Source: a virus
Taxonomy: Duplodnaviria; Caudoviricetes
Virus record (IMG/VR): IMGVR_UViG_3300017766_003232
Location: 24,922-88,921 of that record
Direction: 5' to 3' (one strand)
DNA length: 64,000 nucleotides
Positions 5,997 through 19,110 of this stretch are shown here, piece after piece. Under the pieces are notes generated by a model. It was not told the DNA's origin, did no database searches, and saw only the letters and a list, made by a program, of their open reading frames with translations. The position numbers and the translations under genes were made by a program. Position 1 is the stretch's first letter; each line of letters begins with the position of its first letter.

Positions 5997-6190
5997 CTTT
6001 TAAATTGCATTTTAAAAATTTCAAATTCTATTCCATATTCACCATTTGGATTTTGCATTGGTGTAATAATAGGTCGAATTTCTAATATTTTGTGTTTTAT
6101 TTGACTTAATATAATTCTTTGTTTCATATTGTAATTTTTTAACTCCGAATCAATTAAATCTAACACTTGTTGTTTAGATATTATATCCAT
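5993..6190 (-). CDS. hypothetical protein
   Basis: 65 aa ORF with 4-nt overlap. Confidence 0.55.
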   Translation of the reverse strand: MDIISKQQVLDLIDSELKNYNMKQRIILSQIKHKILEIRPIITPMQNPNGEYGIEFEIFKMQFKR

Positions 6191-8381: not shown

Positions 8382-10351
8382 TATTTAATAATTTTAGTTA
8401 ATATTTTATTGCATCTGTCAATATAATATTGATAATTAATATCATATTGACTAAATAATTTTTCAATGTAAGTATTGAAAATTGTTTGTAAACTATCTGC
8501 TTCAACTCTTGATTCTCTTGTACCATCATCAATATCTCCAAATATATTCATTTGCATACTTGGTGTTTTTGATTCTAATTTTGGTAATCTTTTTAATAAA
8601 TGTATACCATTATTTGAAATATAATATCTATTAATTTTTTGTAAATCAATTTCTTCTTGAGTTTGTTTATTAAAAGAAACAAGTTTGTTTTTACCAATTG
8701 ATTTAGCACCTAAACAGAAATCGTAAATATTTTGATGATTCATTATTGTATTTTCTATTGGCACATTATTTACAAAATAATTTTGAAGTGCTAATGGAAC
8801 TATTCTTGCTGATTTGTTTTTATGTAATTCAAAATCGGATACAAAATCACCTTTTGTTTTTACTTCTCCATCAGTTTTAATAGCAATATAATCATTTACA
8901 GATGTTTGTGCAAATAATTTATAATCAACATATTCTAATTGACCTAAATCAGAATTACCAACTATTACTTCCCATTTTTTACATGTTTCATAGTATATAT
9001 CATTCAATGATTTATCAAATAGACAAACGATACCATCTGTGTTAGCAGAAATAATATGAATACCTCTTAATTCAAGCATTTCAACTAACATTAATATTTC
9101 AATTTGATTTCCAATTGTTACAGTCATCATTGCATATGGACCATATTGCCAATTGTTTTCTTCACCTAACTTACCATATCCACCACCATTAAGAGAAAGC
9201 TTATATGCTTCTTGTATAGCGTTGTATTTACGATCTTTTGTTTCTTTGTATTTCTTTTTTGCATCAAGTCTTTTTTGAATAATTCCAACATATCCATTTA
9301 ACCATTGCTCTCCTAAATGAGGAGGAAATAATTTTCTTTTTCTAATTGCATTTGGATATTGTGATCCAATATCAGCATCTCTAAGTTCTTGATTTTCATT
9401 AGGAATAATAATCCTTGGTTTATCTTCAGAATGAATTCCACCTTTAGCAATTGTATAAATTGTTCCATTATGCTCAAACTTAAAACTTTGTTTTTTTGCT
9501 AAATCAATTTCAATTTTTCCAATTTGCTCTGCAAATAATTTAAATTTTTCTGTTTCAAAATATGTATATTCAGGAAAGCAATCTTTAAAAAACATTTTTT
9601 TAGATTCATAACTTGGTTTTGGTAATTCTTTTTTATCAATTCCAGTTAATGTACAATAAGATATTTTATTGATTTCATCACCTATTTTTACATCGTTGTA
9701 ATTTAAACATTTAATTCCAAATTCTTTCTGAATATTTAATCTTAATTGAATTTTATCTGTTCCTTTATACAAAGGATTATCAGTTTCACCTTTTGTTATT
9801 TTATAAAATTCATGAGTTGCAAAAACATCATGATGATTATAAGGTAAAATTAATTCTTCAATTTGTTTTAAATTAACTTGTTCAGAATGATGAATTGGCA
9901 TTTCTTGAATATCTGGTAAATCTAACATATATTCAATCCATTTCAATGATGTCATTCTTGCTTGGTTATCAAAATGCCAAATTTTAAATAAATCAAGTTG
10001 AGGTATTAATAATTTCCATTCTGGATATGTTGCCCATCCACCTGCATTTATTGTTTGAATAGTTTTTTGAGCAAATTGATAAATCTCATTTGCAATCATT
10101 TCACCATTTCCTAACCAGGTTAATTCAAGAAATTTATTTTGATTTAATAGAATATAATGAATTACTTGACCATCAAATCCTAAATTGTTAAAACCTATTT
10201 GACCAGTTAATTTTTTTAAATGACTTAAATATTCAGGAAAATCATTTCTATCTTCATGAATAACAAATTCAGATTTTTTAAGAGTTGTAGGATCAATATC
10301 GCAATATGTATGACAATTTACAAGTGTTTCAATATCATATATTACTTTCAT
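8381..10351 (-). CDS. DNA polymerase, family B (crAss-like type)
   Basis: Exo I YDIET, Exo II GFNNLGFD, Exo III YNHHDV; polymerase motifs DADIGSQYPN, KLSLNGGGYGKL, SANTDG. Confidence 0.92.
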   Translation of the reverse strand: MKVIYDIETLVNCHTYCDIDPTTLKKSEFVIHEDRNDFPEYLSHLKKLTGQIGFNNLGFDGQVIHYILLNQNKFLELTWLGNGEMIANEIYQFAQKTIQTINAGGWATYPEWKLLIPQLDLFKIWHFDNQARMTSLKWIEYMLDLPDIQEMPIHHSEQVNLKQIEELILPYNHHDVFATHEFYKITKGETDNPLYKGTDKIQLRLNIQKEFGIKCLNYNDVKIGDEINKISYCTLTGIDKKELPKPSYESKKMFFKDCFPEYTYFETEKFKLFAEQIGKIEIDLAKKQSFKFEHNGTIYTIAKGGIHSEDKPRIIIPNENQELRDADIGSQYPNAIRKRKLFPPHLGEQWLNGYVGIIQKRLDAKKKYKETKDRKYNAIQEAYKLSLNGGGYGKLGEENNWQYGPYAMMTVTIGNQIEILMLVEMLELRGIHIISANTDGIVCLFDKSLNDIYYETCKKWEVIVGNSDLGQLEYVDYKLFAQTSVNDYIAIKTDGEVKTKGDFVSDFELHKNKSARIVPLALQNYFVNNVPIENTIMNHQNIYDFCLGAKSIGKNKLVSFNKQTQEEIDLQKINRYYISNNGIHLLKRLPKLESKTPSMQMNIFGDIDDGTRESRVEADSLQTIFNTYIEKLFSQYDINYQYYIDRCNKILTKIIK

Positions 10352-10366
10352 ATTTTCTATTGATTT

Positions 10367-10702
10367 TTAATTTAAAAATTGTTCAATTTCTACTAATTCA
10401 GTTTCTTCTATTTCAGCAGAAATAGATTGCTTTGCTTGTTTTACAAAACGATTTATTCTAAATGCAGGTTCTTGTTCTCTACATAATAATGGTTGATAAA
10501 TTGGAAAATTAATTATTTCTTCAAGCCATATTCCTGTAACAATTCCATCGTTATCAGCAAATCCTCGTATTGTATATTCTTTTCCTTCTTTAACCCAGTT
10601 TAAGAAAGCTTCATTTACAAAGCTTTCCATACCTGGTTTAATGCTAGAATCAATGCACAACACAATATCTCCAATTTCTAAACTAGCATCCATCTTCTTC
10701 AT
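10367..10702 (-). CDS. hypothetical phage protein
   Basis: 111 aa ORF, IGDIVLCID SH3-like start. Confidence 0.65.
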   Translation of the reverse strand: MKKMDASLEIGDIVLCIDSSIKPGMESFVNEAFLNWVKEGKEYTIRGFADNDGIVTGIWLEEIINFPIYQPLLCREQEPAFRINRFVKQAKQSISAEIEETELVEIEQFLN

Positions 10703-10958
10703 ATTTATAATAATTATTACTACTTAAAGCTTTGATATGATCTTTTTGTATTTTTCTGAAAAATCTTTGTTTACGAATCATTGTTTTTCCAAATGTTCTA
10801 CATAGAATAATGTTTCTATGTTTACTATTCCAAGGTGTTTGATTGCTTTTCCAATTTTCTTCTTTTTCTTCATAATTTTTGTTTGAATAACTTAAAATGT
10901 TTGCACAATAGGCAATAAATGCTATAAATAGCATAATAAATGTAATTTTTAAAAACAT
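10683..10958 (-). CDS. hypothetical membrane-anchored protein
   Basis: N-terminal hydrophobic segment. Confidence 0.55.
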   Translation of the reverse strand: MFLKITFIMLFIAFIAYCANILSYSNKNYEEKEENWKSNQTPWNSKHRNIILCRTFGKTMIRKQRFFRKIQKDHIKALSSNNYYKYEEDGC

Positions 10959-10985
10959 AATGAAATTTTAATTGTTTAAAGTTAG

Positions 10986-11124
10986 CAGTCAGGACAGGAT
11001 TCGAACCTGTATGTTTGGATTCATTTACGTTGCCTCTACCACTTAGTACATTTCAACTAATTTGACAGGTCGTACCAAACTCTTGTTACCATGCAATAGC
11101 GTCTACCAATTCCACCACCTGACT
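10986..11124 (-). tRNA. tRNA-like element (class II Leu/Ser-type D arm; anticodon unassignable; 88-nt central region)
   Basis: 7-bp acceptor AGTCAGG/CCTGACT, D arm GTGG-AATTGGTAGA-CGC, T arm ACAGG-TTCGAAT-CCTGT; no canonical anticodon arm; no encoded CCA. Confidence 0.7.
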
Positions 11125-11153
11125 AAAAAACCAAAGTATACTACATTGTACTA

Positions 11154-11507
11154 CTATCTCTTACGAGCCTGTGATAGTTTAGCTGCCCATTCTCTTTGGT
11201 TTTTAATTTTTTCTTCGACATCTTTCTTTGTAAGTCTGTGGGCATATTGGTAATCCCACGCATCGCCTAAAGGTATATGAACCAACTCTAAAGGTGTCGT
11301 ACTAGCAACCATATATTGAGCATAGCCATCTGCAACTGGAAAGCGAATAATCTCGCCCACAAGTTTTTGTGTTGGTTTATGTTTAGTCAATATATCTTTT
11401 AGTTGATCCAAATATGCTTTTTGCTCTGCCATATTTTCCCCATGTGTATTTCCAAATTTCCATTGAGGAACTGCAATTGAACTTGGTGCTGCGAATATCT
11501 TTGCCAT
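11154..11507 (-). CDS. hypothetical phage protein
   Basis: 117 aa ORF. Confidence 0.7.
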   Translation of the reverse strand: MAKIFAAPSSIAVPQWKFGNTHGENMAEQKAYLDQLKDILTKHKPTQKLVGEIIRFPVADGYAQYMVASTTPLELVHIPLGDAWDYQYAHRLTKKDVEEKIKNQREWAAKLSQARKR

Positions 11508-11518
11508 GTCTTTTCTAA

Positions 11519-11662
11519 TTATTGTTCAACTTTCTCAATAACTACATCATCGTAGTCATCATCTTTATAACTAAATGCTAAATCTTCAGCATCACTTTTT
11601 GTTAGGTAGTAATTATTAACTTCAAAACCACCAACCCAAACTGTAAAATATTCCTCTTCCAT
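11519..11662 (-). CDS. small acidic hypothetical protein (MEEEYFTVWVGGFEVNNYYLTK...)
   Basis: 47 aa ORF read manually, below ORF-track cutoff. Confidence 0.55.
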   Translation of the reverse strand: MEEEYFTVWVGGFEVNNYYLTKSDAEDLAFSYKDDDYDDVVIEKVEQ

Positions 11663-11689
11663 ATCTTGTTCGTTTTATATTGTTATAGA

Positions 11690-11881
11690 AATATTTTGTG
11701 CTTGTTTATAAGTTCTTCTTAACCTGATTCTGGTAAAGCCCAGCAGAATAAGTAAACAACCTGGAATTAACTAATGTAAGGCTTCCAGAACTTTTTCCTT
11801 ACTGCACAAAATATTAATATTGGTACTGAGTAGACTAACCTATATTCATAAATATAGTGTTGCTACGTTCTCAATATTAAT
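11690..11881 (-). ncRNA. candidate structured non-coding RNA
   Basis: 12-bp closing stem, two 6-bp pseudoknot stems, a long interrupted stem, and a 10-bp-based hairpin with an AGUA/GAA internal loop (see findings). Confidence 0.65.
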
Positions 11882-11883
11882 GT

Positions 11884-12288
11884 TTAATCTTCATAATAAA
11901 AATTATCAAAATCTTCATCAAAATCTTCAATTTGTTGATTTTTTGTTTCGACAATATTTTGAGCTAATTTTTTTATTTGATCTTTTAAGTTTTTTGAAAT
12001 GTCAATCTGTTCAAGACGAATGTTTAGATATTCTATTGACAAAAGGGTAAATTCTTTATTATCAGAAACAATAAGTAAATCAAAAACTAATTCATTACCA
12101 TAATCATCTACAAGAATAATTGTATCGTCTCTTTCAATTATTTCTAATTCTTCTGTAGCATTATAATCTACTTGAATTATTTCTTCTTTAGTTTCAGATT
12201 TAAGTCTGTCTAATCGACTTAAATCTTTGTTTTTAAAAACTTTAGGAACAGTTGTATTTGGTTTTTTTGATAGGTAAACTTTTTCCAT
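11884..12288 (-). CDS. hypothetical protein
   Basis: 134 aa ORF. Confidence 0.65.
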   Translation of the reverse strand: MEKVYLSKKPNTTVPKVFKNKDLSRLDRLKSETKEEIIQVDYNATEELEIIERDDTIILVDDYGNELVFDLLIVSDNKEFTLLSIEYLNIRLEQIDISKNLKDQIKKLAQNIVETKNQQIEDFDEDFDNFYYED

Positions 12289-12290
12289 TT

Positions 12291-12734
12291 TTAAACTATT
12301 TGCAGATGTATGTAAGTAGAATCTTCGTCAATATGACCACCAAAAGTAGTATAATTTTTATTAAATTCATATTCATTTAATTCTTCTTGTAAAAAATTAT
12401 AATGTTTTACTTCATCATCTAAATTTTTTTTATTAAATTCTTTTATTGCTATTTCATTTGAGTAAGAGCAATCCATTGAAATTAAATAATTTTTGAAATA
12501 ATCTACTTTAATAATTTTTACAACATAATCGTTTTCATCATTTGAATATTCATATACCCAGGTTTTTAATTCAAAATATTTTTCTTCTTTTAAATTATTA
12601 GAATCAAATGGAATCCAATGTTTACAAATTGTTTCAGCTATAATTATTGCTGAATTTTTAGAATTAAATATTTCTATTGCTGGATCAGAATATCCTTCTC
12701 CATTTCCATGTACAATTAATATGTATTTTTCCAT
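12291..12734 (-). CDS. hypothetical protein
   Basis: 147 aa ORF. Confidence 0.65.
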   Translation of the reverse strand: MEKYILIVHGNGEGYSDPAIEIFNSKNSAIIIAETICKHWIPFDSNNLKEEKYFELKTWVYEYSNDENDYVVKIIKVDYFKNYLISMDCSYSNEIAIKEFNKKNLDDEVKHYNFLQEELNEYEFNKNYTTFGGHIDEDSTYIHLQIV

Positions 12735-12758
12735 ATGTATTTATTTCTATGGTTTTAT

Positions 12759-13010
12759 TTACCAATTTGAAACATTTGTAATACAATAATTATCACCAGG
12801 ATGTGCATTCATCCAATCTCCTTGTTGAAGATAAAATGTTTGTTCATTACCTGAACAAGAATTTCTTATTACTACAGAGTAATCCATTACATTATCACTT
12901 AGTATTAATCCACAATTACAAACTTCATTTTTTTTGTTTGGTGTAATTTCATCTTTTTTGCAACTTAATGCAATTATTGCAAATAATGCAATTGCTAATA
13001 ATTTTTTCAT
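12759..13010 (-). CDS. small lipoprotein
   Basis: signal peptide II with lipobox ALSC; further Cys residues. Confidence 0.7.
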   Translation of the reverse strand: MKKLLAIALFAIIALSCKKDEITPNKKNEVCNCGLILSDNVMDYSVVIRNSCSGNEQTFYLQQGDWMNAHPGDNYCITNVSNW

Positions 13011-13031
13011 AGTTTTAATTTATTTTATTAT

Positions 13032-13910
13032 TTAAAATATATAACGTATTGTATTCCAAGGTATTATTTTATTATGTAACTTAGTAAAAGAATTTATAAA
13101 ATCATTTTTTAAATGATGTTTATATCTAATGTTTTTACCACCATGTTGTGATATTTTATTTTCTTGTATTGTAGGAACCCATAAATATTCACTTTCTCCT
13201 GGAAGATTATTAAGTACATTGTAAATATGTTTATTTTCATTGTGAGTAAGAAATATAACTTCAGCTTTAACAATGTCTTTATAACTTACATAATCATTTA
13301 TCATATGAAATAGATTTTCATATTCTTCTAACCAATTACTTGTAACTATTACAGGACTAAAGTTAATATGAACATCATATCCAGCATCTATAAATGCATC
13401 AATAGCTTTAATTCTATCAATTATTTTAGATGTATTAGGTTCTAATAAATCAGCAAATGTTTGTGGCATTAAGCTAAATCTAATTCTAATTTTTTCTTCT
13501 GGATTATATTCAAGAAGTTTTGGATTTACATATTTAGTAGCAAATGTACCCATGGCTATAGGATGTTGCTTAAAAAAGTTAAATGTTTCTTCCCAATCCC
13601 AATGTTTAAGATGTAATGCCATGTCGGAATTACAACCTATATCATATGTAATATATTCAGAATGTGTTTGATTAGGTTTTTTTACATTTGTAAAATAAGC
13701 ATGATTATTTATAGTTGTAAGAATATCTCCTGTATTTTTAGCAATTGTTATATCTTCATTAACATGACGTTTGCAATAACAATATGTACATTCAAAGCCA
13801 CAACCAAAAATAAAACTTGGTGTCATAAAATCACTGGACCTACCAGATTCAGTGATTTTTAATGTTTTTCTTGTAACTTTTTTTATCATACATTTTAGAT
13901 ATTTTTTCAT
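13032..13910 (-). CDS. spore photoproduct lyase-like radical SAM protein
   Basis: CxxxCxxC motif (CGFECTYC); KSSDF-like and FATKYVN, IRFSLMP, GYDVHINFSP segments typical of SPL-family proteins. Confidence 0.85.
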   Translation of the reverse strand: MKKYLKCMIKKVTRKTLKITESGRSSDFMTPSFIFGCGFECTYCYCKRHVNEDITIAKNTGDILTTINNHAYFTNVKKPNQTHSEYITYDIGCNSDMALHLKHWDWEETFNFFKQHPIAMGTFATKYVNPKLLEYNPEEKIRIRFSLMPQTFADLLEPNTSKIIDRIKAIDAFIDAGYDVHINFSPVIVTSNWLEEYENLFHMINDYVSYKDIVKAEVIFLTHNENKHIYNVLNNLPGESEYLWVPTIQENKISQHGGKNIRYKHHLKNDFINSFTKLHNKIIPWNTIRYIF

Positions 13911-18465: not shown

Positions 18466-18730
18466 TTGACTTTGTTTTTAGTTTGACGGGGGAATATCCC
18501 AACCGCCAAAATTTAGTAGGGGTTGTTTGTTTAGGTGGTAACCACTTGTGCATTCTCAACGATATAAAAAAATATAAAAAAATATAAAAATATAATTTTC
18601 TGTACATAGTGTTTCGCTTTTATGTATGCGTAGCATAGCGGTGTAAACTTATCTATTGATGATATACATAACGTAAATACTATATGTATACCTATAAATA
18701 GGTTTACCTATATAGGAAAATTAGTGTAAT

Positions 18731-18876
18731 AAAAGTGATACTAACTTTGGATAAGATGCAGTTTATCAATTGGTTAAGTGTTTTCGTTAGTATAACATTC
18801 AGTGAAACAAGTGTATCACAAAAGGTATATTACATGTATCACTTTTGTGATACTAAAGGTATCACTTTTATGATAC
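18731..18876. repeat. clustered GTATCAC/GTGATAC palindromic repeats (operator/iteron-like)
   Basis: GTATCACTTTTGTGATAC at 18836-18853, GTATCACTTTTATGATAC at 18859-18876, GTATCACAAAAG at 18813-18824, AAAAGTGATAC at 18731-18741. Confidence 0.8.
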
Positions 18877-19110
18877 TAGACCTGTAAAAGAAATGACAAT
18901 TCCAAATGTTTTAACAATTTTATTTAAATTAATTTGTAGATATTCTAATGGTACAATAGTTAGGTAATATGTAAATAGAAAATATGATAATTAATTGCAA
19001 AAGAAAACCCACTGAACGAATCCAATGGGTTAACTTAAATCATAAAATAAAGCCTGGCAAGACCTTTCACTGAAAGAAGTGATATAAACAACGTATGCAA
19101 ATATAAACAA

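Follow-up and report, generated by a model that had tools for sequence, protein, structure and literature searches.

The 126-nt element at 11690-11815 lies between two leftward genes in the genome of an uncultured crAss-like phage from freshwater, and we regard it as most probably a folded intergenic spacer of an ordinary kind that separates two messages. Our best reading, to which we give a probability of roughly one in three, is an intercistronic mRNA fold that, together with a neighboring 68-nt hairpin, marks or stabilises the upstream message. What was observed directly comprises the pairings, the non-coding status of the gap, the missing promoter and terminator signals of its own, and a seam: the element sits on a cassette junction, with the phage's own ORF134 on one side and an acquired block of promoter-like motif, ORF47 and ORF117 on the other. 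This context is the firmer result, in that a gene and its leader were apparently imported from a phage that uses the leader 32 times, and the junction falls within the proposed closing stem of the element.

Genome context and pairings of the element

The window, i.e., the whole 64,000-nt stretch of DNA that was analyzed, is part of an 88.9-kb IMG/VR phage entry with an estimated completeness of 68% and a genome GC content of 28%. The terminase, portal and major head protein of the phage have PHROG matches, and giant virion proteins are encoded as well. The sequencing runs in which it occurs come from freshwater and river metagenomes. Late genes on the plus strand have TATATTTG boxes in front of them (upstream of 21655, 35519, and 47623), which are of the Bacteroidota TAnnTTTG (-7) type and consistent with a Bacteroidota host. 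Since every gene between window positions 1 and 21379 is on the minus strand, the gap would be transcribed leftward if read through. It separates ORF134 from ORF47 by 221 nt, holds two adjacent domains on the minus strand, and is a non-coding spacer in the leftward-transcribed replication-gene arm, with the DNA polymerase gene 1.3 kb downstream. The features referred to below are as follows.

11884-12288, minus strand: ORF134, located upstream; the 3′ untranslated part of its message would include the element
11953-11964, plus strand: third copy of the 12-mer AATATTTTGWGC, with one mismatch, inside ORF134
11813-11883, minus strand: 68-nt hairpin with a 10-bp AU-rich base, sharing AAU with the next domain
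11804-11815, minus strand: 5′ arm of the closing stem, AAUAUUUUGUGC, the perfect complement of 11690-11701
11776-11802, minus strand: stem S1, GUAAGG (11802-11797) with CCUUAC (11781-11776), a span that includes the 5′ strand of S2
11761-11788, minus strand: stem S2, CUGGAA (11788-11783) with UUCCAG (11766-11761), plus a flanking U-G pair
11702-11759, minus strand: interrupted hairpin B of the MFE fold, UUGUUUA/UAAACAA and CUUA/UAAG, with an ambiguous apex
11690-11701, minus strand: 3′ arm of the closing stem, GCACAAAAUAUU, overlapping the start of the apparently imported promoter-like motif
11671-11698, minus strand: promoter-like (leader) motif with core TTTCTATAACAATATAAA, the lone copy in the genome, its upstream half TTTTTAAGTTCTCCC missing
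11519-11662, minus strand: ORF47, encoding a small acidic protein, the first gene after the element
11154-11507, minus strand: ORF117, encoding a widespread phage protein of unknown function that has relatives at 76-86% identity

The original prediction, of an intergenic RNA domain enclosed by a 12-bp stem, was accurate in all the pairings and coordinates that it listed. The closing stem (11815-11804 with 11701-11690) is Watson-Crick at 12 of 12 positions and extends to 17 nt at 88%, and its 5′ arm was kept in both the MFE and centroid folds in contexts of 136, 221, and 316 nt. S1 and S2 are likewise exact, interleaved 6-bp stems whose loops measure 8, 1, and 9 nt; their nearest-neighbour stack sums are -9.84 and -10.73 kcal/mol, respectively, and the S2 helix was retained in the centroid fold. 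Two interleaved helices with loops able to cross the grooves are what an H-type pseudoknot looks like at the sequence level, and S1 and S2 could sterically form one, although they could equally be alternative hairpins. The closing stem, S1 and S2 together comprise 24 pairs, all Watson-Crick and none G-U. The long interrupted hairpin that had also been described is present at 11759-11702, but its apical pairing is ambiguous (UUCUG/CAGAA vs. CUGG/CCAG plus UCUG/CAGG), and in the absence of the closing stem hairpin B was no more stable than shuffles. The base of the closing stem reads AAUAUU/AAUAUU and is followed by UCUAUAAC, with no U run. The neighboring 68-nt hairpin, which begins 2 nt past the ORF134 stop codon, had a folding z of -3.75, with a single fold taking up 24% of the ensemble, and persisted in the 316-nt context; both gap domains folded robustly in the 136-, 221- and 316-nt contexts.

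The gap was correctly described as non-coding, with TAA, TAG, and TGA stops mixed in each of the three leftward frames. Hidden coding under a reassigned stop codon is thereby rejected, as every frame contains mixed stops and no single reassignment opens the gap. The accompanying claim of local GC enrichment holds in a weaker form: the element has 32.5% GC (peaking at 36%) vs. 19-26% in the upstream gene, a modest difference, and the GC-richer zone is not confined to the element, running on downstream through ORF47, ORF117 and a tRNA-like gene.

The TAnnTTTG box was absent from both strands between 11663 and 11990, sigma-70-like sites were not in excess in the gap, and a terminator scan of the minus strand from 10300 to 13100 gave no terminator-like site. 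Because of these three results, part of a longer transcript is a better fit than a separate gene. The terminators usual in this phage are short GC hairpins followed by T runs; compared with these, the AU-rich stem base and missing U run of the element exclude a canonical terminator, and a Rho-independent terminator was rejected as well, there being no GC-rich hairpin with a U tract on the minus strand of the same 10300-13100 interval.

Homologue searches and the cassette junction

The element fits no catalogued family and is a single, unconserved instance. The original prediction had recognized in it no hammerhead, twister, pistol, HDV, or riboswitch consensus and had named an Rfam search as a check, and the outcome agreed with it: at gathering thresholds, Rfam 15, whose families include hammerhead, twister, pistol, hatchet, HDV-like and riboswitch models, matched only a tRNA (10986-11124) in the whole window, and between 11500 and 12000, at E up to 10, nothing overlapped 11690-11815. 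Weak matches elsewhere in the gap scored 19-20 bits vs. thresholds of 60-84. The ribozyme suggested as one possible role lost ground, as no ribozyme model matched the element. The search for homologues that had also been proposed came back empty in ~180 retrieved loci, in IMG/VR, JGI metagenomes and GTDB genomes, and in the phage database, the last of these in both sensitive and near-identity similarity searches. At 34 IMG/VR loci anchored on the DNA polymerase, the polymerase alone was shared; gene order was not conserved and nothing matched the gap, and no second copy of the element was found at loci anchored on ORF117 (12 from IMG/VR, 80 from JGI metagenomes, and two from GTDB). Exact-pattern scans of IMG/VR gave 48 matches to the pseudoknot core, all in unrelated coding DNA and none with the fourth strand, and two matches to the stem-promoter junction, both unrelated. 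A single-sequence covariance model likewise gave no second copy in the genome, in eight related phage records or in 99 loci. Contigs of runs X2 and X3, from two other studies, cover the element with zero differences, whereas the parts that X6 and X7 leave uncovered are uninformative.

Among the 94 ORF117-anchored loci, the only close record was G004 (L036/L048), whose sole similarity to the gap is the promoter-like motif. This 33.5-kb record (L178/L179; 31.8% GC) carries 32 copies of a 45-nt promoter-like motif, all on the minus strand, consisting of TTTTTAAGTTCTCCC, a short spacer (often CAAAAA) and TTTCTATAACAATATAAA, located ~10 nt before start codons. In many of the copies a 5′ arm makes the first part of the motif a stem-loop, e.g., GGGAGAA-loop-TTCTCCC, and the array resembles a PeSL system, but in another group of phages. 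An nhmmer profile of the 32 copies matched 11671-11698 with E = 9e-5 and had no other significant match in the genome. The homology starts between 11699 and 11691, inside the 3′ arm of the closing stem, so that this part of the arm has a reason other than pairing for its sequence; as it now stands, the perfect closing stem probably arose no earlier than the junction.

ORF117 is 90% identical to its G004 counterpart in both DNA and protein, and its leader ~90%, vs. 36-43% for three other proteins common to the two phages. Given this difference and the lone motif copy, we read leader, ORF47 and ORF117 as a cassette, and the three look like a shuffled one. By sequence comparison, ORF117 seems to have been acquired from a G004-type phage in an apparent horizontal transfer spanning 11154-11698. 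In run X6, one low-depth contig, probably from a relative, skips 11516-11673 and joins the motif to the ORF117 leader, as in G004, which weakly suggests that ORF47 is an optional insert between the two. Neither ORF47, ORF117 nor ORF134 matched a Pfam or PHROG family. A protein search found no relatives of ORF47, and ORF134 had one distant relative only (52% identity) and none in IMG/VR; neither a PDB sequence search nor the ESM Atlas provided usable clues to the function of ORF117.

Although the element itself is a single instance, it represents a common kind of feature, namely structured spacers where cassettes meet in hyperplastic parts of phage genomes. Arbiol et al. (2010; PMC2839356) describe PeSL (promoter-early stem-loop) cassettes of T4-type phages in which stem-loops terminate transcription. 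As in those cassettes, a stem-closed structure directly precedes a promoter-like motif among the small genes of a hyperplastic region, and a swapped cassette has its boundary at the motif. The PeSL stem-loops are short and many per genome and come with a complete promoter, whereas here the motif occurs once in the genome (vs. 32 times in G004), its core is recognizable and its upstream half absent, and the "loop" of the stem is a 102-nt interior with inner helices and no U run, in a crAss-like rather than T4-type phage.

Chance, DNA-level and RNA-level explanations of the fold

The amount of nested and interleaved pairing in the element had been judged unlikely to arise by chance, and this stands only in part. 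Nested folding gave a z of -3.1 when the 136-nt domain was taken and of -3.2 when the whole gap was, and the former value comes from the closing stem: the 102-nt interior alone had z = -0.53, with 57 of 200 shuffles folding as well. In a scan along the first 21 kb of the genome, which provides a background rate only, ~5% of 136-nt windows reached z ≤ -3.1. Closing stems of this kind are common, as 13 perfect 12-bp inverted repeats with spacers of ≤150 nt were seen in 88.9 kb, vs. 5.15 in dinucleotide shuffles, and when distinct repeats with long spacers are counted there are six, vs. ~5 per shuffled genome. Seven of the 13 are intragenic, two of these having ~100-nt spacers and three GC pairs as in the element; the other six fall in the ~10% of the genome that is non-coding. 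Natural 102-nt windows contained interleaved perfect 6+6 stems of some kind in 11% of cases, and interior shuffles did so in 8%. The strong form is rare, however, with interleaved stems both at or below -9.5 kcal/mol found at three places in the 88.9-kb record and in 0.65% of the shuffled interiors, and a 12-bp repeat enclosing such a pair was found in none of 227 shuffled genomes. Because this joint pattern was defined only after being seen, we read its statistics as moderate evidence that something here is non-random, and they do not favor RNA over DNA: the plus strand folded equally well (z = -3.43), as did single-stranded DNA (z = -3.2).

Repeats in the DNA bear on the same question. The self-complementary word AATATT makes up the outer half of both closing arms and forms its densest cluster in the genome here (11647, 11690, 11810, 11816, and 11873). 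The arm 12-mer occurs at 11690, inverted at 11804, and again at 11953, and on RNA the last of these copies could offer the 5′ arm an alternative pairing partner. The AATATT cluster, the third 12-mer copy and the lack of G-U pairs are no less compatible with an origin at the DNA level than with selection on RNA.

For the preferred intercistronic reading, we propose that read-through would transcribe the element as a 3′ untranslated or intercistronic part of the ORF134 message, in which the element and the 68-nt hairpin would form two stem-closed domains and thereby punctuate the mRNA. Such domains may act as a pause or processing site and protect the 3′ end, insulating the upstream message from the downstream cassette, and the element would take the slot in which the donor-type phage has a short GC-rich stem-loop before each promoter core. 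The leftward genes, the stops in all frames and the two robust domains speak for this reading, as do the rarity of the joint pattern (0/227 shuffles, with three strong pairs in the genome), the 6 of 13 repeats in non-coding DNA and the stem-loop that G004 often has at the same position before the promoter core. Against it are the lack of any homologue in the searches above, the ordinary interior, the partial explanation of the 3′ arm by promoter-spacer homology, and a strand-symmetric fold free of G-U pairs, as expected of a DNA-level repeat or of chance. The early mRNA of phage T7 has intercistronic RNase III processing hairpins. Like these long imperfect hairpins between genes of a polycistronic message, the 68-nt hairpin has the appropriate shape, and T7-like processing here would leave a 3′ hairpin stabilising the upstream mRNA; the closing stem of the element, in contrast, is just 12 bp, and use of RNase III by the host is hypothetical. 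A real fold would extend the structured spacers at phage cassette boundaries, which are poorly understood, to a crAss-like phage from freshwater and would indicate that such spacers can far exceed short PeSL-type stem-loops in size. As a single unconserved instance with moderate statistics, the element changes little.

An element without function, i.e., a fold due to chance or left behind by recombination in AT-rich DNA, is doubtful but deserves serious weight. AATATT words together with an inverted duplication or template switch at the junction would have made the repeat, and the inner stems would be coincidental. Long-spacer 12-bp repeats at chance frequency, with equivalents inside genes, point in this direction, as do arms that are half AATATT at the densest cluster of that word, a seam within the 3′ arm, an unremarkable interior, pairs that are all Watson-Crick in a strand-symmetric fold, and the ~5% of windows that fold as stably. 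Recurring CUGG, CCAG, and CAGG words also give rival pairings. Coincidence explains less well the joint pattern missing from all 227 shuffled genomes and the 0.65% frequency of strong interleaved stems, or why a 221-nt gap is retained in a tightly packed genome, with the element unchanged in runs of several studies. A role at the level of DNA, in which the 12-mer AATATTTTGWGC (also written AATATTTTGTGC) and the AATATT cluster are protein binding sites, for example looping DNA to control the adjacent promoter-like motif or marking a recombination hot-spot, has a small chance of being correct. Three copies of the 12-mer lie within 275 nt, when 1.79 matches are expected in the 64-kb window (five were found), and the density of AATATT, the perfect and strand-symmetric pairing, the z of -3.2 for single-stranded DNA and the operator- or iteron-like repeated palindromes in another gap of the same phage (18715-18885) are all compatible with it. 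Such a role leaves S1 and S2 unexplained, however; the remaining 12-mer matches, at 6084 and 57313, show no pattern, and there is no candidate binding protein.

The stand-alone or processed novel RNA favored by the original prediction, a pseudoknotted molecule of ~125-200 nt acting in trans or as a catalyst, appears improbable. Lacking an Rfam match it would be new, its pseudoknot geometry is feasible with both stack sums near -10 kcal/mol, the neighboring hairpin is well defined, and the tRNA-like gene 570 nt downstream indicates that the arm does hold RNA genes. Long non-coding RNAs, their function unknown, are abundant early products of phi14:2, another crAss-like phage (bioRxiv 10.1101/2020.03.07.982082), and the element resembles these in being non-coding, intergenic, and located in the early arm of a crAss-like phage; the phi14:2 RNAs, however, are long transcripts whose abundance was established experimentally, whereas the element is known from sequence alone. 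Such an RNA is also hard to reconcile with the missing promoter box and terminator, the thermodynamically ordinary interior, the lack of a strand signal, a 3′ arm that is largely part of the imported promoter-like motif, and a structure model that matched no paralogue in the genome and nothing in eight related records or 99 loci. We consider it similarly improbable that the gap from 11690 to 11883 encodes a new two-domain non-coding RNA, with a loop-rich hairpin and a stem-closed three-way junction locked by an H-type pseudoknot, that would be one of the portable structured modules found between small early genes of phages and have a trans-acting or nuclease-blocking role.

Least probable of all, in our estimate, is a cis-regulatory leader of ORF47 and ORF117, such as a riboswitch, thermosensor, or protein-binding operator. 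ORF47 is the next gene after the element, and an AU-rich, unstructured leader of 27 nt follows the element. The T4 gene 32 operator has a layout that element and leader upstream of ORF47 resemble. The idea of a cis-regulator of the downstream ORFs is nonetheless poorly matched by a structure that stops 27 nt before the start codon and so leaves the initiation region outside; no terminator or anti-terminator follows, no riboswitch model matched, and ORF47 may be optional in a relative, as the low-depth contig weakly suggests. If the motif at 11698-11671 is active, moreover, the element lies upstream of the transcription start.

Known systems of similar layout and other features of the arm

Two further RNA systems share elements of layout with the gap and were rejected. 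As in retron msr-msd regions, 12-bp inverted repeats of a1/a2 type enclose a small hairpin region followed by a long hairpin, and a G stands near the end of the 5′ repeat; unlike in retrons, the products of the downstream genes are 47 and 117 aa long and without Pfam matches, and a reverse transcriptase (PF00078) is absent from the 88.9-kb record, while control genomes did match. The likeness to ToxI-type (type III) antitoxins is a pseudoknotted RNA upstream of a small gene. It goes no further, as 11690-11815 contains no tandem array of ~36-nt repeats and no direct repeats, no terminator stands between RNA and gene, and neither ORF47 nor ORF117 matched a toxin family.

The tRNA-shaped gene downstream of ORF117 (10986-11124, minus strand, 139 nt) scored 30.7 bits against the Rfam tRNA model (threshold 29) and has ~66 nt inserted in the anticodon region. 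ARAGORN called it only with introns allowed, assigning an anticodon UUA ("Stop") and a 45-nt intron. An odd 91-nt tRNA in G004 (c22716-22806), for which ARAGORN gave a 4-base anticodon or UUA with a 5-nt intron, has the acceptor AGUCAGG and a similar T arm in common with this gene.

On the other side of the gap, the 3′ end of ORF134 contains a perfect tandem duplication of the 12-mer ATCAAAATCTTC (11905-11928), which codes for a repeated acidic EDFD motif. Farther upstream, a 292-aa protein (13032-13910, minus strand) matches PF20903, the spore photoproduct lyase family, with E = 4.4e-23; DNA-repair enzymes of this family are unusual in the early region of a phage. The repeated palindromes at 18715-18885 lie in a 645-nt gap (18466-19110) and comprise several copies of GTATCACAAAAGTGATAC and its halves, sharing the word CACAAAA and nested in a 12-13-bp long-range inverted repeat (z = -3.8). 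This region, for which Rfam gave no match, resembles an operator or iteron array and is a candidate origin or regulatory region.
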